NCBI GenBank assembly: GCA_039921685.1
Contig: JBDSBG010000005.1
Coordinates: forward strand, 260-64,259
Direction: 5' to 3'
Length of the DNA: 64,000 nt
DNA from: Ferruginibacter sp.
GTDB taxonomy: Bacteria; Bacteroidota; Bacteroidia; Chitinophagales; Chitinophagaceae
This document shows positions 29,305 through 43,299 of this stretch, in pieces (position 1 is the first letter of the stretch; each line of letters opens with the position of its first letter). The notes beneath the pieces were generated by a model. It made no database searches and was not told where the DNA came from. It was given only the letters and a program-made list of their open reading frames with translations. Position numbers and translations under genes: made by a program.

Positions 29305-29601
29305 ATGAAAACAATTTTATTCGCCATCCAGGCATTATTCATCATTGCCTTGCTGCCAGTTTGCGCCGTGCTGGAATTGAACCACGGAACCAGGACAACG
29401 GTTCAACTGGAAGCCCCGCAACAAACTGTTGAAATTATGGAGAACCCAGGGCTGGACCTGGATGCTTCAATTATTTCTTATCCCATCACTGCAATCAGTT
29501 TCAGGCAAGGAACTGTGAAACCGAAAAAAAAATCTTCTGATAAATGTTGCAGTTGCAAAGATTGTGCATGTGGCAACAGTTGTAAATGCGCCGAGTTCTA
29601 A
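29305..29601 (+). CDS. Small signal-anchored protein with metallothionein-like C-terminal Cys cluster
   Basis: Hydrophobic N-terminus MKTILFAIQALFIIALLPVCAVL; C-terminal CCSCKDCACGNSCKC; AT-rich Bacteroidota-type leader before the ATG. Confidence 0.7.
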   Translation: MKTILFAIQALFIIALLPVCAVLELNHGTRTTVQLEAPQQTVEIMENPGLDLDASIISYPITAISFRQGTVKPKKKSSDKCCSCKDCACGNSCKCAEF

Positions 29602-29658: not shown

Positions 29659-30861
29659 ATGTATTACATGAAAAAAATAATCTCATTCATCTCAACGGGC
29701 CTTTTGTTTTTATTATTAACAAGCTGCTTCAACGCATGTACACCAATTCGCAACCTTAGCAATCAGCCGGTACCATATAAAGGAAACAATGTCTTCAAGC
29801 CGCAGGTTCCCACTCATGAAACTGGGAAGAAAAATGTTTTTATTGTTGCGGATACTAAACTCACTGAGCTTTTCGATATGCTTGCTCCCTTTTATTTATT
29901 CAATCAAACAGGTAAAGCTAATGTGTATATAATTGCAAAATCGAAAAGCCCCATCCTTATAAAAAAGGATCTTTACCTGCTGCCGCAAATTACTTTCGGG
30001 GAAGCCGATTCAATGTTGTTGCGGGCAGACGTTATCGTTATCCCCGCATTGTCGGCAAGGGGTGCGCAGCAGGACCCGGTGATCATCTCCTGGATACAAG
30101 ATCATTTCACTCCTGAAACCCGCATCCTGTCAATCTGCGATGGTGCATCTACCGCCGCCGCGACAGGATTATATGATGGTAAACTATTGACCTGCCACGC
30201 TTCAGATTTTAAAGGCATAAAACCAGGCTTCTCAAAACCTTTATGGGTGCAAAATATTGCTGTTACAAAAGATGGCAACCTCTTTAGTACAGCCGGCGTT
30301 TCCAATGCTGTTGAAGGAAGCCTCACTGTAATCAATGAATTATTTGGAAAGGCTACCATGAGTGCAGCCGCTGAAGATATTCATTATCCGCACGCAGAGC
30401 TAACAGTAAATCATAACAGTATTCCAATCAGCGGCAACAGCAAAATGAGGATCCTGAAGAAAGTGATGTTTCACAAAAACAGGAAAATTGATGTTCTGCT
30501 CGCAAATGGAATTAATGAATTCACATTAGCAAGTGTATTAGACACGTATGGGCGCAGTTTTCCATTCTCACTAAACACTGTTCCGATGCCTGGCATTGCT
30601 AACGACTCTATCGTGCATACCAAATACGGTTTAACCCTGCTATGTACCGCGGATCAGAATTATGCAAAGGCTGATGAATTACATGTTCTTTCCAGCATCC
30701 CCCTTACAAAGGAAGAAGTAGGTTATTTTAATAATGCCACCGTAATAAGTTATGATGATCGTTCAGCTCAATATCCCATAGAGATATGCCTTAACAGGAT
30801 ATCAAAACTGTACGGGCATAAGTTTAAAAATGTAGTAAAACTTATGTTGGATTATAACTAA
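29659..30861 (+). CDS. DJ-1/PfpI-family lipoprotein with two DJ-1-like halves
   Basis: Lipobox LLTSC; DVIVIP, SICDGA nucleophile elbow, TAGVSNAVE; degenerate second half. Confidence 0.75.
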   Translation: MYYMKKIISFISTGLLFLLLTSCFNACTPIRNLSNQPVPYKGNNVFKPQVPTHETGKKNVFIVADTKLTELFDMLAPFYLFNQTGKANVYIIAKSKSPILIKKDLYLLPQITFGEADSMLLRADVIVIPALSARGAQQDPVIISWIQDHFTPETRILSICDGASTAAATGLYDGKLLTCHASDFKGIKPGFSKPLWVQNIAVTKDGNLFSTAGVSNAVEGSLTVINELFGKATMSAAAEDIHYPHAELTVNHNSIPISGNSKMRILKKVMFHKNRKIDVLLANGINEFTLASVLDTYGRSFPFSLNTVPMPGIANDSIVHTKYGLTLLCTADQNYAKADELHVLSSIPLTKEEVGYFNNATVISYDDRSAQYPIEICLNRISKLYGHKFKNVVKLMLDYN

Positions 30862-31297: not shown

Positions 31298-31870
31298 ATG
31301 CCGCCGATTATAATGCTCATCAAAAATATGGTCTGCCTTCGCTGTATGCTCACGGTTGAAAATATTTTTCGCAACGAATCAATCGATTACCAGGCGATTA
31401 GCCTTGGGGAAGTACGCCTGGAGCAGGTCTCTCCAGAACAGAAAGCCCGGTTATCAAAAAGCCTTGAAAATGTTGGGTTTGAGTTAATAGATAACCGCGG
31501 TAGCGCACTTATTGAAAAAATAAAACAGCTAATTATTAAACGTGCCCGCAATGATGCAAATGAAGAAGATAGTAAAACTAAATTATCAAATTATCTTTCT
31601 GCAAATGTTAATCATGAATACAGCTACCTCAGTAGTCTTTTTTCTTCCGTAGAAGGAAGGACAATTGAAAATTATTTTATAGAACAAAGAATTGAAAAGG
31701 CAAAAGAATTGCTTGTTTACGGGCAAATGACATTATCACAAATAGCTTTTGATCTTGAATATAGCAGCACAGCTCATCTCTCCGCCCAGTTTAAAAAGGT
31801 TACAGGTTTAACGCCATCTTTCTTTAAAGAATTAAGAACAGTAAAGCGTAGATTCCTGGATAATGTTTGA
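31298..31870 (+). CDS. AraC-family regulator with N-terminal CxxC (HMA-like) metal-sensing domain
   Basis: IKNMVCLRC N-terminus; C-terminal IEKAKELL..TLSQIAFDLEYSSTAHLSAQFKKVTGLTPS. Confidence 0.9.
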   Translation: MPPIIMLIKNMVCLRCMLTVENIFRNESIDYQAISLGEVRLEQVSPEQKARLSKSLENVGFELIDNRGSALIEKIKQLIIKRARNDANEEDSKTKLSNYLSANVNHEYSYLSSLFSSVEGRTIENYFIEQRIEKAKELLVYGQMTLSQIAFDLEYSSTAHLSAQFKKVTGLTPSFFKELRTVKRRFLDNV

Positions 31871-31955
31871 GGAAAGTTTCATTTGCAGCCCGGTTTTTAC
31901 AAACCAAAACACAGTGAACAACTATCGAAAGCCGCTGAATAAAATCCCAAAATTA

Positions 31956-32011
31956 TATAACAGTTACCCAAAGCGATGTAACATCGCCACTGCCTTCCAG
32001 GTTTACTTTTG
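31956..32011 (+). promoter_or_regulatory. Promoter with TRTAA-N16-TGTAA direct repeat and TAnnTTTG -7 box (copy 1)
   Basis: TATAA 31956, TGTAA 31977, TACTTTTG 32004; includes the inverted repeat GCGATGT-A-ACATCGC. Confidence 0.7.
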
Positions 32012-32043
32012 TGATATCAAATAACAATTAAAAAACAACAATC

Positions 32044-32169
32044 ATGAAATCAGTAACAACAACAAACAAAGCAATCGAAACAGCAAACAATGTAAAATGC
32101 AGCAATCCAACATGTACCTGCGTTGATTGTAGATGTGGTTCTACATGTACCTGTGCAAATTGCAGGTAA
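32044..32169 (+). CDS. Metallothionein-like peptide, copy 1 (41 aa, 8 Cys)
   Basis: MKSVTTTNKAIETANNVKCSNPTCTCVDCRCGSTCTCANCR; own -7 promoter box, A-rich leader and downstream terminator; not in the supplied ORF track. Confidence 0.85.
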   Translation: MKSVTTTNKAIETANNVKCSNPTCTCVDCRCGSTCTCANCR

Positions 32170-32192
32170 GCTATTGCAAGAAACACGTAAGG

Positions 32193-32219
32193 GCCGTTCC
32201 GGAAGGACGGCTTTTTTTT
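32193..32219 (+). terminator. Intrinsic terminator after metallothionein-like copy 1
   Basis: GCCGTTC-CGGAA-GGACGGC stem followed by T8. Confidence 0.85.
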
Positions 32220-32327
32220 ATTTCAATTGTTTGCTTTGCTGCGGCAAGCTTCTCCCTTTCGTCTTCACTAGTCCAAACCGAATCACCAAAATAAAAGTTG
32301 CTTTACCATGTTTTTATCCCAAAATTA

Positions 32328-32383
32328 TATAACAGTTACCCAAAGCGATGTAACATCGCCACTGCCTTCCAGGTATACTTTTG
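32328..32383 (+). promoter_or_regulatory. Promoter with TRTAA-N16-TGTAA and TAnnTTTG (copy 2)
   Basis: Duplicate of 31956-32011 at +372 bp. Confidence 0.7.
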
Positions 32384-32415
32384 TGATATCAAATAACAAT
32401 TAAAAAACAACAATC

Positions 32416-32541
32416 ATGAAATCAGTAACAACAACAAACAAAGCAATCGAATCAGCAAGCAATGTAAAATGCAGCAATCCAACCTGCACCTGCGTTGATT
32501 GTAAATGTGGTTCTACATGTACCTGTGCAAATTGCAGGTAA
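32416..32541 (+). CDS. Metallothionein-like peptide, copy 2 (41 aa, 8 Cys)
   Basis: MKSVTTTNKAIESASNVKCSNPTCTCVDCKCGSTCTCANCR; three conservative substitutions versus copy 1, all Cys retained. Confidence 0.85.
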   Translation: MKSVTTTNKAIESASNVKCSNPTCTCVDCKCGSTCTCANCR

Positions 32542-32555
32542 GGTCGCTCAATTGT

Positions 32556-32587
32556 AAAAAAGGCCGTTTAATTGAGGCGGCCTTTTT
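32556..32587 (+). terminator. Intrinsic, potentially bidirectional terminator after copy 2
   Basis: A-run, GGCCGTTT/AGGCGGCC stem, TTTTT. Confidence 0.8.
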
Positions 32588-32702
32588 ACTCTTAGAACAT
32601 CGCTGGTTTAGCTTGTCCTTTTTTGACATCAGGTTGTCTTTTAACCGCTATCCTGCAAACTTATCTTCGCATAAGAAATGATTAAACCAAGCAACAAAAA
32701 AA

Positions 32703-33128
32703 ATGATCATGAAAAAATATATAATCTTACTGATGATTTATCTACTGGCAGTTGTAAGTGGCTTCGCCCAGTCAAATAGTTCATCCAGCCGAATAAAAGG
32801 CATCTATTGGTCGCCAAAGAAAGACGCAAAAATTGAAATCTATGAAAAAGGAGGCAAGTATTTCGGCAAAACCATTTGGATAGCAACGCCTGGCAAAGAC
32901 AAAAATAATCCGGTAGAAACATTAAGACAAAGAGACTTGTTGGGTTTAAACCTGCTTGCTGGTTTTACATTCAACGATGAGGTATATTCCGGTGGTGAGG
33001 TGTATGACCCAGGCAACGGGAAAACTTATGATTGTAAAATGTCCTTAAATGGTGATCAGCTCAAAGTGAGGGGGTATATAGGTATTTCGCTTTTCGGGCG
33101 TACAGAATATTTCCAAAGAATAAAATAA
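32703..33128 (+). CDS. DUF2147-family secreted protein
   Basis: Signal peptide; YFGKTIW, DKNNPV, GEVYDPGNGKTY, LKVRGYIGISLFGRT motifs. Confidence 0.85.
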   Translation: MIMKKYIILLMIYLLAVVSGFAQSNSSSSRIKGIYWSPKKDAKIEIYEKGGKYFGKTIWIATPGKDKNNPVETLRQRDLLGLNLLAGFTFNDEVYSGGEVYDPGNGKTYDCKMSLNGDQLKVRGYIGISLFGRTEYFQRIK

Positions 33129-33151
33129 ATATAAGAAAATTAAATTTCCAT

Positions 33152-33373
33152 ATGAACAGTTTGATCGGGATCTTCAAAACAGATGTGCAAAATAAAACAC
33201 AGGCACGTTTAATAACACGCCTTCTCAAAGCGGGTTTATTTAACATAAAAATAAATTTCGACCTTGATGACTGCGATAAAATTTTGAGGGTAGAGGGACT
33301 CAACGAGTTATACTCACAGGAAATCATAAACGATTTGGGAAAGTTGGGATTCAAGTGTGAAGTACTGAATTGA
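33152..33373 (+). CDS. Small HMA-like (ferredoxin-fold) protein
   Basis: IFKTDV...INFDLDDCDKILRVEG...LGFKCEVL, a recurrent Bacteroidota small-protein pattern. Confidence 0.6.
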   Translation: MNSLIGIFKTDVQNKTQARLITRLLKAGLFNIKINFDLDDCDKILRVEGLNELYSQEIINDLGKLGFKCEVLN

Positions 33374-33460
33374 ACTCAATTCTTTCACTGTCATTTGATG
33401 TACATACTCACCTGGAACTGAACATCTCTTACCTTTATTACAGAACAATAAAACAACAAA

Positions 33461-34375
33461 ATGCAAACAGTAGCTTTTATTATTCCGCCCCATGTTGAGT
33501 TGCTCGACCTTGCTGGTCCCGTCCAGGTTTTTACTGAGGCGAAATTTTATGGGTTTGAAGTTGATATCAGGTTTTATCAATTCAACGATTCACCTGTTAG
33601 TACTGCCGGGCTAGGTTTTGGTGAAATATTAAATTATGCTGAAGCAAAACTAAAAGAGGGAGACTTTGTTTTTATCCCCGGGATGGATTTTGAATATGTG
33701 AACAGCATTTCATTCCGGGCAGAAACAGCATTTTTCAAATGGCTAAAAGAATGTTCTGGTAAACACGTTACAGTTTGCTCAATTTGTAATGGGGCATTTG
33801 CTTTAGGAATGGCAGGTTTGCTTAAAGATACTGAATGCACTACGCATTGGAGAAGAGTAAAAGAATTACAAACCCAATTTCCAACTGCTAAGGTGGTTGC
33901 CGATATCCTTTACATAAAGAGTAATAATGTTTATACCAGTGCAGGCATAAGTGCGGGTATCGACCTGGCACTTGCCATCCTGGAGGACTTAAAAGGCCCA
34001 TTATTCACTCATAAAGTGGCAAGAGGGTTGGTTGTTTATCACCGTAGAAGTGGCCGACACAACCAGCAAAGCATTTACCTGGATTATAGAAATCACATCA
34101 ACCCACAGGTACACGAAGTGCAGGACTACCTTATTGATAATCTCTCGGGAGAAAATGATATTGAAACACTGGCTTCACTGGTGAATATGAGTGCAAGAAA
34201 CCTCAGCAGGGTTTTCAAAGAAAAAACGGGATCAACGATACTAGAATACCTCACACTGTTACGAAAAGAATATGCCAGTACCATGCTAAACAATCCTGAA
34301 TACACAATCGAATACATAGCATCTCAATGTGGTTTTAAAACCGCCCGGCAATTGCAGCGGATACTTAAGAAATAA
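33461..34375 (+). CDS. GlxA-family regulator (DJ-1 domain plus AraC HTH)
   Basis: LLDLAGPVQVF, SICNGAF, TTHW, TSAGISAGIDLAL; AraC C-terminus MSARNLSRVFK..IASQCGF. Confidence 0.92.
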   Translation: MQTVAFIIPPHVELLDLAGPVQVFTEAKFYGFEVDIRFYQFNDSPVSTAGLGFGEILNYAEAKLKEGDFVFIPGMDFEYVNSISFRAETAFFKWLKECSGKHVTVCSICNGAFALGMAGLLKDTECTTHWRRVKELQTQFPTAKVVADILYIKSNNVYTSAGISAGIDLALAILEDLKGPLFTHKVARGLVVYHRRSGRHNQQSIYLDYRNHINPQVHEVQDYLIDNLSGENDIETLASLVNMSARNLSRVFKEKTGSTILEYLTLLRKEYASTMLNNPEYTIEYIASQCGFKTARQLQRILKK

Positions 34376-34552
34376 CGATGTTTAAAAAAATTAGATGTAC
34401 AACTATTTTCATCTGCGTATGGCAATCTAATGGCAAGAGCTAAAATTACCAAGCAGCCAGGTACCCATTTATATCATCTTAGTGGAACGCTCTTATATTT
34501 CTTTTAAAAACCGTACATTTACATACATCAGTTCCAACCTAAAACCGCCATT

Positions 34553-36226
34553 ATGAATCACAGTTTTACCCGTGTTATTTTTTCGATATGTTTGTTCCTG
34601 GGCATATTTGTTTCAACAAGTGCCACTGCCCAATGTAATTCGTCATTTACTTTCGCTCAAGTTACAAATACATTTACGGCTGAATTTGTAGACAACTCTA
34701 CAAGCCCGGGCGGCGTTGTAACTTCATGGCTTTGGGAATTTGGCGATGGTACCAGCAGCACATTGCAAAACCCGCATCATACATTCACAAGCGCAGGCAC
34801 TTTTCATGTTTGCCTTTCCATTCACGACAACCAGGGTTGTACAAACCAGGTATGTCACGATATCATTATTGCTCAAGGTTCCGCCAACTGCCATTCGGCA
34901 TTCAATTTTGCCCAGATCAGCAATAGCCTTGCTGTAGAATTTGTTGATTTATCTACAACAGCAGGTCCGGCAGCGATTACATCGTGGCTATGGAATTTTG
35001 GTGATGGCACCACGAGCACTGAACAAAATCCGCATCATACATTTACGCATGATGGAACTTTCCATGTGTGCCTTATCACCCATGATAACCAGGGTTGCGT
35101 AAGCGACGTTTGCCATGATGTCGTGGTAAATCCTGTACCATCCAGTTGTCATTCGGCCTATACTTTTGCACAGATCGCAAATACATTAACGGTTGATTTT
35201 ACAGATGCTTCTACAACAGCCAATACAATGACCAACTGGCAATGGAATTTTGGTGATGGTACCAGCAGTACGGATCAAAACCCACATCATACTTTTACGC
35301 ATGATGGTACATTTCATGTATGCCTCATTACCCATGATAGCCAGGGCTGTGTCAGCGATGTGTGCCATGATGTAGTAGTAACGGGAACGGGTGTCCCGGT
35401 TTCTTGCCACGCTTTATATACCATTTCAAATACAAACAATCCGTTTGAAATACACTTTACCGATGCATCCACAAGTCCCAACACGGTCACATCATGGCTA
35501 TGGGATTTTGGAGATGGAAGTTCCAGCCACGATCAAAACATTACACACACATATACGCATGATGGCATTTATCATGTTTGTTTAACCATTCACGACAACC
35601 AGGGTTGTACCAGTACATATTGTCATGAGATAACCATACAGCACAATCCAATTGCCTGCCATGCCCAATATAGTTTTCATGCAGATTCAACTGGTACTAT
35701 CCATTTTACAAATACAACAACGGGCACAACAGCACATACCGTTTATTCATGGAATTTTGGTGACGGTACAAGTTCAACGAGCGAAAATCCTCATCACCAG
35801 TTTGACCATCCCGGCCACTACACCGTCTGTCTTTTCATACAGGACAGTACAACTGGTTGTGAATCTCATTTCTGCCACAGTATAGAAAACAATCAAAGGA
35901 ACAGCCATGCACTTGTTTCACAATATTACTTTGTAAACAATGATGGTTCTACGATAACATTAGATGGAGAGCAATATATCGTTGGTTATCCCAATCCTTT
36001 CAGGACCAGCATGACCATTCAGTATGAACTTACCAATGATGCAGTGGTAAAGATTGATATTATGGATCGTAACGGAAGGCGTATGAGACAAGTTTTAAAC
36101 GAGAGTCAATCAGCAGGCCAGCATACCCAAACAATCAATGCAGGTAGTTTAAGTTCCGGTCTGTATTTCTTAAAGATGAATGTAGGTGGGGAAAACTTCC
36201 AAAAGAAAATTATGATTATTAAATGA
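34553..36226 (+). CDS. His-rich protein with five PKD repeats and a T9SS type A sorting domain
   Basis: Signal peptide; five units of C..F...W.W.FGDG....NPHH.F.H.G..HVCL..HD..GC....CH; C-terminal YPNPF...LSSGLYFLKM...KKIMIIK. Confidence 0.85.
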   Translation: MNHSFTRVIFSICLFLGIFVSTSATAQCNSSFTFAQVTNTFTAEFVDNSTSPGGVVTSWLWEFGDGTSSTLQNPHHTFTSAGTFHVCLSIHDNQGCTNQVCHDIIIAQGSANCHSAFNFAQISNSLAVEFVDLSTTAGPAAITSWLWNFGDGTTSTEQNPHHTFTHDGTFHVCLITHDNQGCVSDVCHDVVVNPVPSSCHSAYTFAQIANTLTVDFTDASTTANTMTNWQWNFGDGTSSTDQNPHHTFTHDGTFHVCLITHDSQGCVSDVCHDVVVTGTGVPVSCHALYTISNTNNPFEIHFTDASTSPNTVTSWLWDFGDGSSSHDQNITHTYTHDGIYHVCLTIHDNQGCTSTYCHEITIQHNPIACHAQYSFHADSTGTIHFTNTTTGTTAHTVYSWNFGDGTSSTSENPHHQFDHPGHYTVCLFIQDSTTGCESHFCHSIENNQRNSHALVSQYYFVNNDGSTITLDGEQYIVGYPNPFRTSMTIQYELTNDAVVKIDIMDRNGRRMRQVLNESQSAGQHTQTINAGSLSSGLYFLKMNVGGENFQKKIMIIK

Positions 36227-36251
36227 TGATCAATGTGAATTAACTGATAAG

Positions 36252-36277
36252 AGCCTTGCAGTATTGCAAGGCTTTTT
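36252..36277 (+). terminator. Intrinsic terminator after the PKD gene
   Basis: AGCCTTGCA-GTAT-TGCAAGGCT followed by a T run. Confidence 0.8.
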
Positions 36278-36369
36278 CATGTTAGCCTGAATTGAAATGA
36301 TAGGCAGGCTCAGGCCGACAGACAAGTATTAATTTAATTGATATAACCGATGATCTTTACATTTGCAGA

Positions 36370-36939
36370 ATGCTTTTATACATAAAAAACATGGTGTGCA
36401 ATCGTTGTATTCACATCGTTGAAGAGGAACTCAACAAGCTCCAATTGAATCCTGTTTATGTTCGCATGGGTGAAGTGAACCTGGCAAAACCTGCCAATGA
36501 AAAACAACTGCAGGAACTTGACGTAAAACTGAGATCCTATGGCTTTGAATTATTGGACGATCAAAAGCAAAAGCAGATAGAGAAAATAAAAAACCTCCTG
36601 ATAAAAAAAGTTCAGACAGGGGAAATAGAAGAACATTTTAGCATTATCCATTTTTTAAGCAACTCGCTTCACAAAGATTATAGTAATGTTTCCCGTTTGT
36701 TTTCAGAAGTTGAAGGTATTACCATTGAACAATTCTTTATTCTGCAGAAAATAGAAAAAGTAAAGGAATTATTGGTTTACGCTGAAATGAACCTTAACGA
36801 AATTTCGTTCCAGTTAGGTTATAGCAGTTCAGCGCATTTATCAGGCCAGTTCAAAAAAGTAACAGGCCTTAGTCCCAGTCATTTCAAAAAGATTGGCGCA
36901 TTACAGCGAAAATCCCTCGACGAAGTAAGCAACAAATAA
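36370..36939 (+). CDS. AraC-family regulator with N-terminal CxxC (HMA-like) domain, second paralogue
   Basis: IKNMVCNRC; IEKVKELL..EISFQLGYSSSAHLSGQFKKVTGLSPS. Confidence 0.9.
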   Translation: MLLYIKNMVCNRCIHIVEEELNKLQLNPVYVRMGEVNLAKPANEKQLQELDVKLRSYGFELLDDQKQKQIEKIKNLLIKKVQTGEIEEHFSIIHFLSNSLHKDYSNVSRLFSEVEGITIEQFFILQKIEKVKELLVYAEMNLNEISFQLGYSSSAHLSGQFKKVTGLSPSHFKKIGALQRKSLDEVSNK

Positions 36940-36940
36940 A

Positions 36941-36996
36941 TGTAAATTATTGCGCAAATCCTGTAATGATTGCAGGAACAGGTCATAGTAGCTTTG
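36941..36996 (+). promoter_or_regulatory. Promoter with TGTAA-N16-TGTAA and TAnnTTTG (third instance)
   Basis: TGTAA 36941, TGTAA 36962, TAGCTTTG 36989: the same 21-bp and 27-bp spacings as at 31956 and 32328. Confidence 0.7.
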
Positions 36997-37014: not shown

Positions 37015-37743
37015 ATGACACATACATATAATATTACCGGGATGACCTGCGGGGGATGCGTTGCAAAAGCTAAAAGTGCATTGCTTAAATTGGGTGATAT
37101 AACCGAGGCAGAAGTACAGCTTTCATCGCCCCAGGCTACGATTACCATGGCCAAGCACATACCTGTTTCATTATTACAAAAAGCGCTCAATAACGCGGGA
37201 CCTTATTCGATTACTGAAACCAACGCTGTTATTCATCATTCCATTGATACTCCGTCAGAAAGTTCTTCCTGGCTGCAAACATATAAGCCCATCCTGATCA
37301 TTGCCGCTTACATTACTGCAATTAGTCTTCTGATTGAGACCCAAACAGGATTTCATTTGGAAAACTGGATGCAGAATTTCATGGCAGGTTTTTTTATAGT
37401 ATTTTGTTTCTTTAAAGTACTCGATCTGAAAGGCTTCGCAGACAGCTATGCTACTTATGATATCATTGCAAAAAGATGGCACGGCTGGGGATATGTGTAT
37501 GCTTTTATAGAACTTGGCCTTGGTATTGCTTATCTCCTGAAGCTTAACCCGCTGTTTACAAATGCGATTACTTTTGTCGTCATGAGTGTTAGTTTAATTG
37601 GGGTGCTTCAGGCAGTATTGAAGAAGCAAAAGATTCGATGTGCATGCCTGGGCGCAGTGTTTAACCTGCCCATGAGTACAGTTACTATACTGGAGGATGT
37701 CATCATGATTGGGATGTCTTTGCTGATGCTCTTGCACCAATAA
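37015..37743 (+). CDS. HMA domain fused to MauE/DoxX-like membrane domain
   Basis: YNITGMTCGGCV HMA motif; TM helices; CACLG motif. Start set at MTHTY. Confidence 0.85.
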   Translation: MTHTYNITGMTCGGCVAKAKSALLKLGDITEAEVQLSSPQATITMAKHIPVSLLQKALNNAGPYSITETNAVIHHSIDTPSESSSWLQTYKPILIIAAYITAISLLIETQTGFHLENWMQNFMAGFFIVFCFFKVLDLKGFADSYATYDIIAKRWHGWGYVYAFIELGLGIAYLLKLNPLFTNAITFVVMSVSLIGVLQAVLKKQKIRCACLGAVFNLPMSTVTILEDVIMIGMSLLMLLHQ

Positions 37744-38019
37744 GCAGTTGGCTACGGAAACTGTGGTTGATTAAACCGATGAACAGGCAAACATAAGCGC
37801 ATCTTGCTTTTACAAATCTTATTTTCGCTTTTTATTATATAAATGTGATACACAACTTTCAATTTATTTCTACGGTTCCAAATGCCAGGGTTCAGCATCC
37901 TCCGGGAGCAGACATTCGGATAACGATCCAGTCTTTCCAGATTTGATTTCAGGCTAAATCTTTGTACCCATGAATGCACATGCCTAAAAATAATTCTATA
38001 ACATAAATAAATCAAAAAG

Positions 38020-38566: not shown

Positions 38567-40654
38567 ATGGAGCATTCGCATAATATTTCAACGCCTGAAA
38601 CAGATCATTCAAAAATGAATCATGCTGCTATGCAGCACAAAGCAGGGCATTCATCGGGTATGACTGGCCATAATCATCATGCTATGATGATAGCTGATTT
38701 TAAAAAGCGCTTTTATGTGGTGTTGGTTCTTACGATTCCTATCATGATGCTTTCGACCATGATTCAACATTTTATCGGAATTCATTGGGAGTTTGTAGGA
38801 TCCCAATATGTATTGTTTGCATTGTCAACCCTTGTTTTTTTTTATGGAGGTTGGCCGTTTTTAAAGGGATTGGTTGATGAAGCAAAAGCAAAGAATCCTG
38901 GAATGATGTTTTTAATTGGTTTTGCAATAACAGTTGCTTACATCTACAGCGTCGCAATTGTATTTGGATTACCGGGAATGGATTTCTTTTGGGAACTGGC
39001 CACGCTGATCCTCATTATGCTGTTGGGCCATTGGATAGAAATGAAATCAGTTGCGGGTGCCTCCAGGGATCTCGAATTATTGGTACAATTGATGCCCGCA
39101 GATGCGCACATGGTCATGCCAGGCATGATCCATGATGTTAAAACAGACACATTAAAAATCAATGATATTATTCTTGTTAAACCTGGCGAAAAAGTAGCTG
39201 CTGACGGAATAATACTGGAAGGTGAAACATATTTGAATGAGTCAATGTTAACGGGTGAATCAAAGCCGGTAAAAAAAGTAAAGGGAGATAAAGTTATTGC
39301 CGGAGCTATAAATGGAAATGGCTCAGTCAAAATCACAGTTTCTAATGCAGCTAAAGACTCTTATCTCTCACAAGTGGTGAAGTTGGTGGATGATGCACAA
39401 AATTCTAAATCAAAAACTCAATTGCTGGCCAATACAGCAGCAAAATGGTTAACTGTAATCGCAATTGTAGCCGGGATAGCTACATTTTTATATTGGTACT
39501 TAACAGGCCAGTCTTTGTCATTTGCAATGGAAAGAATGGTTACAGTAATTGTTATATGTTGCCCTCATGCTTTAGGCCTGGCAGTACCGTTAGTAGTAGC
39601 AAGATCAACTGCCTTGTCAGCTAAAAATGGTTTGTTGATTAAAAACCGCACTGCATTTGAAAATGCACGAAAAATAACAACGATCGTTTTTGATAAAACA
39701 GGAACACTTACGATAGGAAAGTTCCAGGTTTCAAAAATTGTTCCGCTCGCTGCTGATGCCGGGAAAATAGAGGGAGCGGGTTCAGGGCTGATGTTAAAAG
39801 AAAAGGAACTCATTCGATTAGCTGCGGCTTTGGAGCAATATTCAGAACACCCAATTGCAACCGGCATACTTCAAAAAGCAAAAGAGTTATCTATAACTAT
39901 TCCCAAAGCAGAAAATTTTAAGGCCATTACCGGTAAAGGTGTCGAAGCGCTTGTAGATGGTAAAAATACAATGGTTGTTAGCCCGGGATATTTAAATGAA
40001 AATAATATCGCAGTTCCGGCTCAGTTTACTGCCAATGATACCGAAACAGTTGTGTTCATAATCGTGAATAAAGAATTAAAAGGCTACCTGGCATTATCAG
40101 ACGAGATCAGGCCTGAATCAGCAGCTGCGATTGAAACACTAAAACAAAATAATATCAGGTCAATTCTTCTCACTGGTGACAATAAGAAGGTTGCAAAATC
40201 TGTAAGCGAAGTGCTGGGGATGGATAGTTTCATTGCAGAAGTATTGCCACATCAGAAGTTGGAAAAAATTAAAGAGTTGCAAAGTAAAGGTGCATTTGTG
40301 GCAATGACCGGCGATGGAGTAAATGATGCTCCGGCATTGGCCCAGGCTGATATAGGTATCGCCATTGGAAGCGGCAGCGATATTGCCGCAGAAACTGCAG
40401 GCATTGTGCTGGTAAACAGCAACCCGATGGATGTTGTGAATCTTGTGTTATTTGGCAAAGCAACATACCGGAAGATGATTCAAAATTTAGCATGGGCAAC
40501 CGGGTATAATATTATTGCGTTACCGTTAGCTGCGGGTGTTTTGTATAATCAAGGCATCTTATTAAGTCCGGCTGCAGGAGCGGTGTTAATGACCGTAAGT
40601 ACAATCGTCGTTGCCATAAACGCGGGATTATTAAAAGTAAAAAAAGGGAAATGA
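38567..40654 (+). CDS. copB: Copper-translocating P1B-type ATPase (CPH, CopB-like subtype)
   Basis: His/Met-rich N-terminus, TGES, CCPHALGLA, DKTGT, GDGVNDAPAL, YN and MTVST TM motifs. Confidence 0.9.
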   Translation: MEHSHNISTPETDHSKMNHAAMQHKAGHSSGMTGHNHHAMMIADFKKRFYVVLVLTIPIMMLSTMIQHFIGIHWEFVGSQYVLFALSTLVFFYGGWPFLKGLVDEAKAKNPGMMFLIGFAITVAYIYSVAIVFGLPGMDFFWELATLILIMLLGHWIEMKSVAGASRDLELLVQLMPADAHMVMPGMIHDVKTDTLKINDIILVKPGEKVAADGIILEGETYLNESMLTGESKPVKKVKGDKVIAGAINGNGSVKITVSNAAKDSYLSQVVKLVDDAQNSKSKTQLLANTAAKWLTVIAIVAGIATFLYWYLTGQSLSFAMERMVTVIVICCPHALGLAVPLVVARSTALSAKNGLLIKNRTAFENARKITTIVFDKTGTLTIGKFQVSKIVPLAADAGKIEGAGSGLMLKEKELIRLAAALEQYSEHPIATGILQKAKELSITIPKAENFKAITGKGVEALVDGKNTMVVSPGYLNENNIAVPAQFTANDTETVVFIIVNKELKGYLALSDEIRPESAAAIETLKQNNIRSILLTGDNKKVAKSVSEVLGMDSFIAEVLPHQKLEKIKELQSKGAFVAMTGDGVNDAPALAQADIGIAIGSGSDIAAETAGIVLVNSNPMDVVNLVLFGKATYRKMIQNLAWATGYNIIALPLAAGVLYNQGILLSPAAGAVLMTVSTIVVAINAGLLKVKKGK

Positions 40655-43299
40655 AAAGATTTAATTTAATAATATTGATACTTACTATTGGTTGTTTTGC
40701 TTCTGCACAGGAGAGGCGAGGCGAGGATATGCCAAAATTGGGAACCAAAAATCAACTTCCTGTTACGTATACCTGCCCGATGCATCCCGAGATACATGCA
40801 AGCAAACCAGGCAATTGTCCCAAATGCGGGATGCCACTGGTGAAAGAAAAAACGAAAGCGAAAAAACCAGTTCCCATTCCTAAAAAACAAGAAGTCGTTC
40901 AATCCGCGAGTAAAGACTCCGTAAAAAAAGAGCCTGGCGCTATTGATATGCAAATGCCCGCAATCGATAGTTCCATGAAAAAACAACCCATGGAGGAAAT
41001 GAAAATGGATGATGCCGATTCTGGTATTGACAATTCCGATTTGGAAAATGCTAAAAAGAACCTGGGTTCTCTAAAGATGATTTCATTCAATAACTTACCA
41101 CATACGGTTCGTTATGATCTATACATAAAAGATACTGTCGTAACATTTGGGAAAAAGAAAAAGAGGGCCATTGCAGTCAATGGGCAGATACCCATGCCTA
41201 CCTTAACTTTTACAGAAGGTGATACAGCAGAAATTTGGGTGCACAATGAGATGAATGAAGAAACTTCTTTGCATTGGCACGGGTTGTTTTTACCAAACCA
41301 GTATGACGGAGTTCCTAATCTCACCCAAATGCCTATCAAAGCTCACACAACCCATTTGTATAAATTCCCGATCATACAACATGGCACACATTGGTATCAT
41401 AGCCATACAGAACTACAGGAACAAATTGGCATGTATGGAATGTTCATTATGAACAAACGCCAGGACTGGGATATACCCACATTGCCCCTTATCCTGAGCG
41501 AGTGGATAGATATGAACCCAAAAGAAGTGCATCGCAGTTTACATGCTGCGACTGACTGGTTTGCTGTGCAAAAAGGTAGTACACAAAGTTATGCGGAAGC
41601 AATTAAACAGGGCCATTTCAAAACAAAAGTAAACAATGAATGGAAGCGCATGAATGCAATGGACCTTACGGATGTGTATTACGATAATTTCCTGGTAAAT
41701 GGCCAGAATCAATTGGAGTACAAATCTTATAATCCAGGTGTAGATGGCCAGGCGTTAAGGCCACTAAAAGCCGGCGACAAAGTTCGATTGCGCATTGCAA
41801 ATGGCGGCGCATCCGATTACTTCTGGCTTTCTTATGCAGGAGGGAAAATTACTGTTGTTGCTACAGATGGGAATGATGTTGAACCGGTGGAAGTTGACAG
41901 GTTGATCATTGCCGTATCAGAGACATACGACGTGATCGTTACCATTCCAGACAATAGGAGCTACGAATTTTTAGTAACACCTGAAGATCGTACAAAGCAT
42001 GCTTCCTTATGGATTGGCAACGGTGAAAAAGTTGCTGCTGTAAAATTGAAACGTCCTAAATATTTTGCAGGCATGAAGATGATGAATGAAATGATGGACA
42101 TGAAAGGAAACATGATCGAAATGGAAGGTATGAAAATGGAAAATCAAGTGATGGATATGAATACCGTTATGTATCCCGAAATCACTGGCCCTGAAAATCC
42201 TAACGATGCTCCTGGTACAAATGAACACAGTATGCCGGGCATGTCCACGGCGGCCGAAGGCATGCCCGCTGACATCATTTCCCTGAATTATACTATGTTA
42301 AAAGCCACGGAAAAAACGCCGCTTCCTGCCGGCCCACTGCGGGAACTCAAGTTTGACCTAACGGGAAACATGAATCGCTATGTTTGGACCCTGGATAATA
42401 AAACCGTTTCAGAAACTGATAAGATACTTATTCAGAAAGGTGAAAACGTGCGTATTATTTTATACAACAACAGTATGATGCGGCATCCTATGCACCTGCA
42501 TGGTCACGATTTCAGGTTGCTGAACGGGCAAGGCGAATATTCTCCGTTGAAGAACATCATAGATATCATGCCAATGGAACGAGATACCCTCGAGTTCAAT
42601 GCAAATGTATATGGCGATTGGTTTTTTCATTGCCATATTTTATATCACATGATGAGCGGGATGGGCCGGGTTTTCACTTATAAAGACCAACCGCCAAATC
42701 CCGAAATCCCAAATCCTAAACTTGCGCAAAGAAAATTATTTTCAGATGACCGTGAATTTCATTTAATGGGCCGCGTTGGAATAGAAAATAATGGAAGCGA
42801 CGGTGAATTAATGTTTGCCCAAACGCGGTGGAAAATAAGCACCTTGTGGCATTTAGGTTATCACGATATGCACGGTTACGAAAGTGAAACGATGGTGGGC
42901 CGTTACATAGGGCGCATGCAATGGTGGTATCCTTATATTGGATTTGACTATCACTATAAAATGGAAGGCGGCCCGAAAAATATTTTTGGGAATGAAGAAA
43001 AAAACTGGTTCGGCCAAAAGAGTAATAAAAATAACCGGAAAACAGTAATCGCGGGTGTAGCCTACACCTTACCGTTATTATTTACTGCTGACGCCCGAAT
43101 TGATGGAAACGGAAAGTTGCGCTTCCAGCTTGGCAGAGAAGATGTACCTGTTACCAAACGTTTGCGATTCAGCATAATGATCAATACCGATAAAGAATAC
43201 ATGGCTGGATTTCGGTACATCCTTACAAAATACATTTCTCTTTCAACTCATTATGATAGTGACATGAGTTTGGGCGGGGGGATAACAATAACTTATTAA
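40651..43299 (+). CDS. Multicopper oxidase with N-terminal heavy-metal-binding domain and C-terminal barrel-like region
   Basis: YTCPMHPEI..PGNCPKCGMPL; copper sites HWHG, WYHSH, HPMHLHGH, HCHILYHM; Met-rich linker; aromatic-ending beta-rich C-terminus. Confidence 0.92.
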   Translation: MKRFNLIILILTIGCFASAQERRGEDMPKLGTKNQLPVTYTCPMHPEIHASKPGNCPKCGMPLVKEKTKAKKPVPIPKKQEVVQSASKDSVKKEPGAIDMQMPAIDSSMKKQPMEEMKMDDADSGIDNSDLENAKKNLGSLKMISFNNLPHTVRYDLYIKDTVVTFGKKKKRAIAVNGQIPMPTLTFTEGDTAEIWVHNEMNEETSLHWHGLFLPNQYDGVPNLTQMPIKAHTTHLYKFPIIQHGTHWYHSHTELQEQIGMYGMFIMNKRQDWDIPTLPLILSEWIDMNPKEVHRSLHAATDWFAVQKGSTQSYAEAIKQGHFKTKVNNEWKRMNAMDLTDVYYDNFLVNGQNQLEYKSYNPGVDGQALRPLKAGDKVRLRIANGGASDYFWLSYAGGKITVVATDGNDVEPVEVDRLIIAVSETYDVIVTIPDNRSYEFLVTPEDRTKHASLWIGNGEKVAAVKLKRPKYFAGMKMMNEMMDMKGNMIEMEGMKMENQVMDMNTVMYPEITGPENPNDAPGTNEHSMPGMSTAAEGMPADIISLNYTMLKATEKTPLPAGPLRELKFDLTGNMNRYVWTLDNKTVSETDKILIQKGENVRIILYNNSMMRHPMHLHGHDFRLLNGQGEYSPLKNIIDIMPMERDTLEFNANVYGDWFFHCHILYHMMSGMGRVFTYKDQPPNPEIPNPKLAQRKLFSDDREFHLMGRVGIENNGSDGELMFAQTRWKISTLWHLGYHDMHGYESETMVGRYIGRMQWWYPYIGFDYHYKMEGGPKNIFGNEEKNWFGQKSNKNNRKTVIAGVAYTLPLLFTADARIDGNGKLRFQLGREDVPVTKRLRFSIMINTDKEYMAGFRYILTKYISLSTHYDSDMSLGGGITITY

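Follow-up and report, generated by a model that had tools for sequence, protein, structure and literature searches.

A tandem-repeat promoter element beside HMA-AraC regulator genes as a candidate operator for copper-handling and metallothionein-like genes in Bacteroidota

Introduction

Do the metallothionein-like genes and the HMA-MauE/copper gene cluster of a Ferruginibacter sp. contig (JBDSBG010000005.1) answer to the same regulator, and through which DNA element? The window, that is, the whole 64,000-nucleotide stretch of this contig that we analyzed (positions 260 to 64,259, forward strand), had received an initial annotation from its letters alone, which pointed to three promoters sharing the pattern TRTAA-N16-TGTAA-N22-TAnnTTTG. 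The pattern had been read as a 21-bp direct repeat overlapping the upstream promoter element and following each of two paralogous AraC-type genes whose products carry an N-terminal CxxC motif. These HMA-like AraC proteins were proposed to be metal-sensing activators, the pattern to be their operator, and the two gene groups to form one regulon; enrichment of the motif near homologous regulators of other Bacteroidota was suggested as a check. Comparison with related loci makes it likely that the motif is the operator of the regulator encoded immediately upstream. The HMA-AraC regulators, to judge from the genes that follow the motif, probably switch on copper-export and metal-binding genes.

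Results

The pattern TRTAA-N16-TGTAA-N22-TAnnTTTG has exactly three matches in the window, at 31956-32011, 32328-32383 and 36941-36996, all on the + strand; 100 dinucleotide-preserving shuffles of the window yielded no match. A copy lies downstream of each of the two CxxC-AraC genes, paralogue 1 (31298-31870, +) and paralogue 2 (36370-36939, +), so that both the number and the placement of the copies are as initially annotated. Motif copies 1 and 2, however, fall within a 227-nucleotide (nt) tandem duplication (31944-32170 and 32316-32542, 97% identical), which begins where the operator begins and ends with the stop codon of a small Cys-rich gene. Sites 1 and 2 therefore represent a single evolutionary observation, and the window holds two independent occurrences of a pattern that was defined post hoc, which is why the decisive test needed other genomes. 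Two copies of a pattern drawn up after seeing them, one of which (site 3) scores near the top of the chance distribution, could in principle reflect a chance resemblance of two unrelated AT-rich promoters.

We compared 160 related loci, namely, 80 genome loci with relatives of paralogue 2 (from Chitinophagaceae, Saprospiraceae/Lewinellaceae, Cyclobacteriaceae, Sphingobacteriales, Flavobacteriales, Bacteroidales and Ignavibacteria) and 80 metagenome loci with relatives of paralogue 1. The core TRTAA-N16-TRTAA stood directly after the regulator stop codon in 26 of 79 genome loci. When a 34-bp matrix grown from these 26 matches was applied to the region up to 150 bp past the regulator stop codon, the outcome was bimodal, 61 of the 79 loci scoring more than 14 bits and the others at most 2 bits. 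Elsewhere in the loci there were 41 more sites above 12 bits, 35 of them on the strand of the regulator and mostly just upstream of the next genes; overall, 73 of the 79 genome loci have a site (12 beyond the 61 within 150 bp). In a two-fold hold-out, 28 of 39 and 32 of 40 unseen loci (60 of 79 regions downstream of regulators) exceeded 12 bits, compared to 0.1% of shuffled sequences; neither the 78 regions that precede the regulator nor the 79 coding segments gave a hit. Among the orthologues of paralogue 1, the motif was found downstream in 44 of the 57 loci with at least 100 bp of flank, usually from 7-8 nt past the stop codon. The motif is thus enriched near homologous regulators, as the check suggested with the initial annotation asked. 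With the element at the same place in more than 130 loci from other genomes, a strong hold-out validation and no match in the shuffled windows, chance resemblance can be regarded as effectively refuted. That the spacer is randomized and the loci are spread over several orders speaks for selection acting on the motif itself. Autoregulation, considered separately, was ruled out by the absence of a site from all 78 regions upstream of regulator genes.

An ungapped alignment of 91 unique sites from the related loci, in which position 0 is the T of the first TRTAA, showed the earlier TRTAA pattern to be a subset of a longer conserved element. The operator is a head-to-tail direct repeat, with a 21-bp period, of approximately CCAnAATnnTRTAAC, and so comprises more than two pentamers. 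Conserved positions are C-8, A-7, A-6, w, A-4 and A-3, followed by T0 R T A A4, T9, C12 C13 A14 n A16 A17 T18, T21 R T A A25 C26 A27 and, finally, A49 n Y T52 T53 T54 G55. None of the 21 spacer positions between A27 and A49 is conserved, and the TRTAA of the proximal repeat ends exactly 22 nt before the -7 box TAnnTTTG. The block from -8 to -3 was outside the search matrix and hence provides independent evidence for the upstream half-site, which extends the 21-bp direct repeat of the initial annotation, itself borne out by the alignment. C-8 is present in 34 of the 42 sites that do not adjoin a stop codon, and the upstream half-site is equally conserved in them; coding constraint as the source of C-8/A-7 conservation was ruled out on these grounds. 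A third repeat unit further upstream was not found, positions -29 to -16 showing no conservation across the 91 sites.

In the window, a matrix trained on other genomes only gave matches above 8 bits at 31956, 32328 and 36941 and at a 21-bp-shifted overlap of site 2. Operator 1 consists of the distal unit CCCAAAATTATATAAC (31946-31961, +), which follows the class B consensus CCCAAAATTnTRTAA (see below) and includes the upstream half-site conserved independently of the search matrix, and of the proximal unit CCCAAAGCGATGTAAC (31967-31982, +), which starts 21 bp after the distal one and sits where the -33 element would be. Operator 2 (32318-32354, +; distal unit 32318-32333, proximal unit 32339-32354) is its duplicate within the 97% identical segment and is matched by the matrix. 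The distal unit of operator 3, CAAATAAATGTAAA (36933-36946, +), follows the class A consensus CAawwAnnTRTAA and overlaps the stop codon of regulator 2; C-8 is retained even where the amino acid of its codon varies. The proximal unit, GCGCAAATCCTGTAAT (36952-36967, +), departs from the consensus tCCAnAATTcTGTAAC, and an 83%-identical relative (locus L161) has the same variant, ACGCAAATCCTGTAAT.

The Bacteroidota -7 box occupies -12 to -5 (PMC9723704), and transcription is therefore predicted to start about 60 nt after T0, at approximately 32016, 32388 and 37001, with predicted leaders of 28, 28 and 14 nt for promoters 1, 2 and 3. The repeat units would then lie at about -69 to -55 and -48 to -34 (for operator 1, about -70 to -55 and -49 to -34), with centers near -62 and -41. 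All three promoters carry a -7 box of the Bacteroidota sigma-A type found by the pattern match, TACTTTTG at 32004-32011 (22 nt from the proximal TRTAA), again TACTTTTG at 32376-32383 and TAGCTTTG at 36989-36996 (all +), and A49, T52, T53, T54 and G55 are conserved in the 91 sites. No -33 TTTG/TTG is conserved among these sites, because its place is taken by the TAAC(A) of the operator, which occupies positions 24-30 together with unconserved bases that follow it. Such a -33 element, TTTG or TTG, reportedly precedes the -7 box by about 19 bp, and a promoter lacking it fits activator dependence. The conserved element, asymmetric and repeated in tandem 21 bp apart with the proximal copy over the -33 position, has the architecture of an AraC/XylS class II site; AraC at I1-I2, XylS at Pm and RhaS activate transcription with this geometry.

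This geometry bears on the way in which the regulator would act. It might mainly repress, or work as a dual switch in the manner of AraC or MerR, holding the promoter off without metal: AraC itself represses without inducer, and the proximal unit covers the -33 region, so that an inactive bound protein could block the polymerase. The sites, however, lie entirely upstream of the -7 box and of the transcription start, as in class II activation, and with no conserved -33 element under or beside the site the promoter should be weak unaided, so that we find a repressor or dual switch rather improbable. It also bears on who reads the motif. An extracytoplasmic function (ECF) sigma factor could use TGTAAC as a -35-like element, since this hexamer bears a loose likeness to the GGAAC-type -35 boxes of ECF promoters; binding by an unrelated transcription factor is a further option. 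Yet the downstream element is of the sigma-A type TAnnTTTG and lies 22 nt off, too far for ECF spacing, and a sigma factor has no need of a 21-bp duplication of its element. Moreover, motif and regulator gene occur together in 73 of 79 loci of several orders, and operator variants co-vary with the recognition helix of the regulator, as described next. The ECF-sigma reading was rejected on spacing, type of -7 box and duplication of the element, and any reader other than the adjacent regulator appears very improbable.

Sites associated with the two regulator subfamilies fall into two classes. Orthologues of paralogue 1 are accompanied by a class B operator, CCCAAAATTnTRTAAnnnTTnCCCAAAGTnnTGTAACA, and the mainstream subfamily, to which paralogue 2 belongs, by a class A operator, CAawwAnnTATAAaTcTTTtCCAnAATTcTGTAAC; the two differ at -10, -9, -5 to -2, 11, 15 and 17. 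At position 11, class B has C in 46 of 47 sites and class A has T in 33 of 46; at position 15, class B has A in 46 of 47 whereas class A is mixed; at position 17, class B has G in 35 of 47 and class A has A in all 46. By log-likelihood ratio, the window sites 31956 (+26) and 32328 (+33) belong to class B and 36941 (-31) to class A. Among the proteins, the two subfamilies share their second recognition helix (SSvAHLSxQFKKvTG), whereas the first one differs, YSyiS[R/K]LFSEVEG versus YTYLSSLFS[S/A]VEG, through the changes S105T, R/K109S and E113S/A. The simplest reading of this correspondence is that helix 2 reads the common TRTAAC and helix 1 the diverged CCA box.

Alternatively, both paralogues might bind all three operators interchangeably, and there would be one shared regulon in which either protein controls the HMA-MauE cluster along with the metallothionein-like genes. 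All sites do have the TRTAA-N16-TRTAA core and identical spacing in common, both subfamilies have the same second recognition helix, and the class A matrix gives the sites of the metallothionein-like genes 26.5 bits, more than site 3 itself receives, so that some cross-talk between the pairs may occur. In addition, a Mucilaginibacter locus (L078) has a metallothionein-like gene behind a generic class-A-like operator, which indicates that such genes were probably in the ancestral regulon. On the other hand, positions 11, 15 and 17 are nearly invariant within the subfamilies, the class B matrix is blind to site 3 (<5 bits), and the first recognition helix differs systematically. A single interchangeable regulon thus seems unlikely to us. 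The covariation of the operator variants with the first recognition helix favors two parallel regulator-operator pairs, and a paralogue dedicated to the metallothionein-like genes probably arose in the lineage of the window. Of the initial proposal, the assignment of the motif to the HMA-like AraC proteins is supported by its enrichment near homologous regulators, and the single regulon is not, since the operator variants differ between the paralogues.

A further operator variant, GTGTGAATGATGTAA...TRTAA, accompanies more distantly related regulators (49-53% identity) and is present several times in each locus (L144:77, L146:319/1770, L159:971-3717). It precedes, among others, the gene of a 110-residue Cys-rich protein, MENKKIEDCIDACETCVDTCETC..., that has no Pfam match.

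Paralogue 1 (190 residues) and paralogue 2 (189 residues) are 46% identical to each other. Each combines an HMA-like N-terminal domain, with MVCLRC in paralogue 1 and MVCNRC in paralogue 2, with an AraC-type DNA-binding domain, for which both match Pfam HTH_18 (E = 1.7e-15 and 4.7e-17) as well as HTH_AraC. The orthologues of paralogue 1 are 57-73% identical to it and are followed by a class B operator and a small Cys-rich open reading frame (ORF). Paralogue 2 represents the mainstream subfamily, which is about 70% identical across Chitinophagaceae; it has at least 8000 homologous matches, many of which are about 70% identical and carry no label but "AraC family transcriptional regulator", and a query with the N-terminal 88 residues retrieved 1225 clusters at 50% identity. 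By these homologues, the regulators form a large Bacteroidota/Ignavibacteria family.

The AlphaFold2 model of paralogue 2 (pLDDT 86) predicts an HMA-like domain at residues 1-62, where AraC/XylS proteins usually carry their sensing/dimerization domain, joined almost without linker to a seven-helix DNA-binding domain at residues 65-178. The N-terminal part is modelled as beta-alpha-beta-beta-alpha-beta (E2-6, H11-23, E28-32, E35-38, H44-56, plus a strand near residue 60; pLDDT about 90 for this part), and C10-x-x-C13 is at the beta1-alpha1 junction. In Foldseek searches, the C-terminal part matched AraT, YesN, AdpA-DNA, AraC, MarA and SoxS (target-normalized TM-scores of 0.7-0.79 for the top matches), and the N-terminal part matched the metallochaperone-type structures Atx1 2xmv, GolB 4y2i, 4a47 and CsoZ 6ff1 (target-normalized TM-scores of 0.53-0.67, probabilities of 0.87-0.98). 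An hhalign comparison with the HMA domains of the downstream proteins gave E = 9.5e-5 and a probability of 59%, with the CxxC aligned to GMTCxxC. In 138 family members, K-N-M-V-C-x-R-C, which contains the M-x-C-x-x-C motif, is invariant, and K6-C13, G34, E35, G58, E60 and D63 are invariant or near-invariant. On this basis, the term HMA-like is justified for the modelled N-terminal domain and full membership in PF00403 is not. Orthologues of paralogue 1 have His11 (MVCHRC) in 40 of 58 and His37 in 48 of 58 sequences, and these residues might serve as extra ligands for the CxxC site.

To characterize the genes behind the motif, we recorded the first ORF behind each of 93 strong sites in the related loci. 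The commonest first gene encodes an HMA-MauE protein (MTHTY..GMTCxxC, about 245 residues; 32 sites), followed by genes for a P1B ATPase (29 sites), a HYC_CC_PP-family Cys-rich protein (12 sites), a CopZ-like protein of about 70 residues (6 sites) and a small metallothionein-like peptide (2 sites). All 28 motif-linked ATPases whose transmembrane region lies in the locus carry CPC, YNx4P and MxxSS. CPC in TM4 together with YNx4P and MxxSS in the last transmembrane helices is the signature of Cu(I)/Ag(I) transport, and these ATPases are accordingly of the Cu(I) P1B-1 type. The presence of copper genes behind the motif identifies the regulon as one of copper handling and supports a metal-responsive role.

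In the window, the gene behind operator 3 encodes an HMA-MauE protein of 242 residues (37015-37743, +; MTHTYNITGMTCGGC...; Pfam HMA and MauE), and it is the only gene of the copper cluster with a site. The class-specific 41-bp matrices gave nothing above chance in the window before 29305, 38020, 38567 (ATPase) and 40651 (oxidase), and none of the DUF3347 gene, the ATPase gene (38567-40654) and the multicopper oxidase gene (40651-43299) was found to have an operator of its own. The link between motif and copper cluster drawn in the initial annotation therefore applies to the HMA-MauE gene but not directly to the ATPase and oxidase genes. Close relatives have a single site followed by tightly packed genes for HMA-MauE, a His-rich protein, DUF3347, Haem_bd and the oxidase/ATPase, and co-transcription of the copper genes of the window with HMA-MauE by read-through is plausible from this arrangement.

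Several features of this cluster deserve separate mention. The window ATPase (+ strand) has CPH instead of CPC and a His-rich N terminus and is CopB/P1B-3-like; no operator precedes it. The multicopper oxidase (+, 882 residues), whose start codon overlaps the ATPase stop codon, has a heavy-metal-binding domain (HMBD) at the N terminus and, at the C terminus, an extension of about 200 residues. The HMA-MauE and DUF3347 genes are separated by 277 bp, within which 37809-37943 (+) encodes only the C-terminal approximately 46 residues of a His-rich CopL/HYC_CC_PP-like protein and looks like a truncated remnant of such a gene, which relatives carry intact in the same place, encoding 152-164 residues (L161:5441-5935 and L162:5406-5864; tblastn E = 1.5e-8). 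In a 76%-identical relative (L162:2414-3658), a tyrosine-recombinase gene of the phage integrase family directly adjoins the regulator and copper cluster, which may travel on an integrative element.

Behind operators 1 and 2 lie the two duplicated metallothionein-like genes, at 32044-32169 (+; an ORF of 41 residues with 9 Cys, KCSNPTCTCVDCRCGSTCTCANCR) and 32416-32541 (+; an ORF of 41 residues within the duplication). The first is followed by an intrinsic terminator with an 11-bp stem and a T run (32189-32223, +). Among class B sites with enough flank, 40 of 51 have behind the operator a 35-60-residue ORF of the type MKS...KCSNPNCTCVNCNCGSTCTCANCK, and the consensus of this peptide family (window copies and L081-L141) is KC[SD]NPNCTCxNCNCGSxCTCxxCK. 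The peptide had no match in Pfam, NCBIfam or PDB sequences (E <= 10); its last 12 residues, CxCxxxCxCxxC, may resemble fungal copper metallothioneins.

A 98-residue ORF at 29305-29601 (+) has a hydrophobic N terminus and a Cys-rich tail, CCSCKDCACGNSCKCAEF, that resembles the metallothionein-like peptides, and no operator lies upstream of it. Two DJ-1/PfpI-domain genes (29659-30861 and 33461-34375), one of them fused to a GlxA-like AraC domain, flank the metallothionein-like unit. Between the two regulator-operator units, 34553-36226 (+) encodes a protein of 557 residues with five PKD repeats and a type IX secretion system (T9SS) C-terminal sorting domain. Each repeat has a His/Cys-rich motif, NPHHTFT..GTFHVCL..HD.QGC....CHD, and the protein may be a secreted metal-binding protein.

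Discussion

Our comparisons indicate that a 21-bp tandem repeat with a fixed position relative to the -7 box accompanies a family of HMA-AraC regulator genes and precedes copper-handling genes. From the sequences, we infer DNA binding, activation and metal response by these regulators. The mechanism that we consider most likely is metal-dependent class II activation in which two protomers occupy the tandem repeat; we hold its details with less confidence than the assignment of the operator. Two regulator molecules would sit on the two repeats, on the same face of the helix, each protomer placing its invariant second recognition helix on TRTAAC and its variable first recognition helix on the CCA box. 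Loading of the CxxC with Cu(I), or possibly another thiophilic metal, would let the bound protein recruit RNA polymerase in place of the -33 contact, and metal-bridged pairing of the two HMA domains is one candidate for the switch. Paralogue 2, through the class A operator, would drive HMA-MauE and perhaps also the copper genes that follow it, and paralogue 1 and the class B operators would drive the two duplicated, separately terminated metallothionein-like genes.

A number of observations weigh against this picture. Site 3 (36941) is marginal for a scan of 64 kb, since it scores 18.4-21.9 bits and the best matches in 100 shuffled windows score 19.7-20.4 bits; its significance stems not from the score but from its position 2 nt past the regulator stop codon, its exact spacing from the -7 box and the presence of the same variant in the 83%-identical relative. 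Many of the loci come from related Chitinophagaceae, so that the counts overstate the number of independent events. As to the sensor domain, neither paralogue matched Pfam HMA (PF00403) at E <= 0.01, and the N-terminal Foldseek matches have weak E-values of 0.2-0.5 despite target-normalized TM-scores of about 0.66 and, for Atx1, GolB and CsoZ, probabilities of 0.96-0.98. Paralogue 1 of the window has Leu and Arg at the positions where its subfamily typically carries His11 and His37. A symmetric metal-bridged dimer is hard to fit to a head-to-tail repeat, because the HMA-like domain is nearly linkerless. Sequence of the window was found only in DNA runs of a rhizosphere metagenome and in no RNA run. 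Finally, no publication on the HMA-AraC regulator family was found in a full-text literature that covers few subscription journals, and a prior description is possible.

The closest known systems are the class II activators of the AraC/XylS family (AraC at the I1-I2 sites of pBAD, XylS at Pm, RhaS and MelR), for which our comparison follows what the 1997 review by Gallegos et al. reportedly sets out. Like these, the HMA-AraC proteins have a seven-helix DNA-binding domain with two helix-turn-helix motifs, and the bipartite half-sites of their putative operator are arranged head to tail at 21 bp, with the proximal copy abutting or overlapping the -35/-33 position of a promoter from which this element is missing. 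In contrast to them, the HMA-AraC proteins have a 62-residue HMA-like CxxC sensor instead of a cupin or periplasmic-binding-protein-like ligand/dimerization domain, almost no linker, a Bacteroidota -33/-7 promoter and, presumably, a metal ion as the signal. The monomeric binders MarA, SoxS and Rob (Foldseek 1bl0, 7w5w, 1d5y) provide the best-understood structural template for one AraC-type domain reading two boxes about 10 bp apart, but their target is one asymmetric 20-bp site, whereas the two tandem sites found here imply two protomers.

On the sensor side, the HMA metallochaperones Atx1, CopZ, GolB and CsoZ, which are known to form metal-bridged dimers, resemble the regulators in fold, as predicted from the model, and in carrying M-x-C-x-x-C where beta1 meets alpha1, while the regulators have their domain fused to a DNA-binding domain and a sequence beyond the reach of the Pfam HMA model. 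Fusions of a small Cys-based metal module to a DNA-binding domain occur elsewhere: archaeal CopR/CopT-type regulators combine a helix-turn-helix with a TRASH metal-binding domain, and Ada combines an AraC-type domain with a Cys4-Zn domain. The likeness extends to control of a neighboring copA/copZ-type cluster, but the metal-binding folds and the phylum are different and, for CopR, so is the DNA-binding family.

In terms of function, the comparison is with CueR (MerR family), CsoR and CopY, the three recognized classes of Cu(I)-sensing regulators in the parts available to us of a 2024 review of bacterial metal sensing, which list these as the Cu(I) sensors and do not mention AraC (PMC11672702). 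These regulators control the same kinds of target genes (Cu(I) P1B-1 ATPase, CopZ-like chaperone and copper-binding proteins) and have, as is presumed here too, a Cys-rich ligand site of low coordination number. Their folds and DNA-binding modes, however, are unrelated to those of the HMA-AraC proteins. CueR distorts DNA from within the -35/-10 spacer, while the site described here is upstream, at about -69 to -34, and CsoR and CopY are repressors released by Cu(I), while this site is placed as for an activator. With a domain content of AraC plus HMA-like and an operator upstream of the -7 box, the proteins do not belong to the CueR/MerR type, and an HMA-AraC regulator would be at most a functional analogue of CueR, CsoR and CopY.

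For Bacteroidota, a genome survey of one flavobacterium did not detect any CueR- or CopY-type protein with a copper site and suggested ArsR-type proteins in their place (PMC11213822); for marine members of this phylum, another survey reported two-component and ECF systems alone (PMC10141476). Neither survey reports a recognized cytoplasmic copper sensor, which leaves a gap for Bacteroidota, and the HMA-AraC family may be the sensor that this phylum has been missing. Going further, we put forward a proposal whose chances we judge to be evenly balanced, namely, that Bacteroidota and Ignavibacteria rely on HMA-AraC proteins as their main cytoplasmic Cu(I) sensors. These would then form, next to CueR, CsoR and CopY, a fourth structural class of copper metalloregulator, and the first in which an AraC-type activator has a chaperone-like sensor. 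In Chitinophagaceae, under the same proposal, a paralogue that arose by duplication, its first recognition helix and its operator re-tuned, would have become a dedicated switch for undescribed metallothionein-like peptides of 35-60 residues.

The analysis supplies the candidate parts of such a system: a protein family, a 36-bp operator with fixed promoter geometry and a coherent set of copper genes. If the assignment is true, the operator is defined well enough to reconstruct the regulon in any Bacteroidota genome, which would enable regulon prediction in gut, soil and marine members of the phylum. The two pairs would offer a natural example of a duplicated regulator and its operator diverging together, and the element suggests a copper-inducible promoter part for use in a phylum where genetic tools are scarce.

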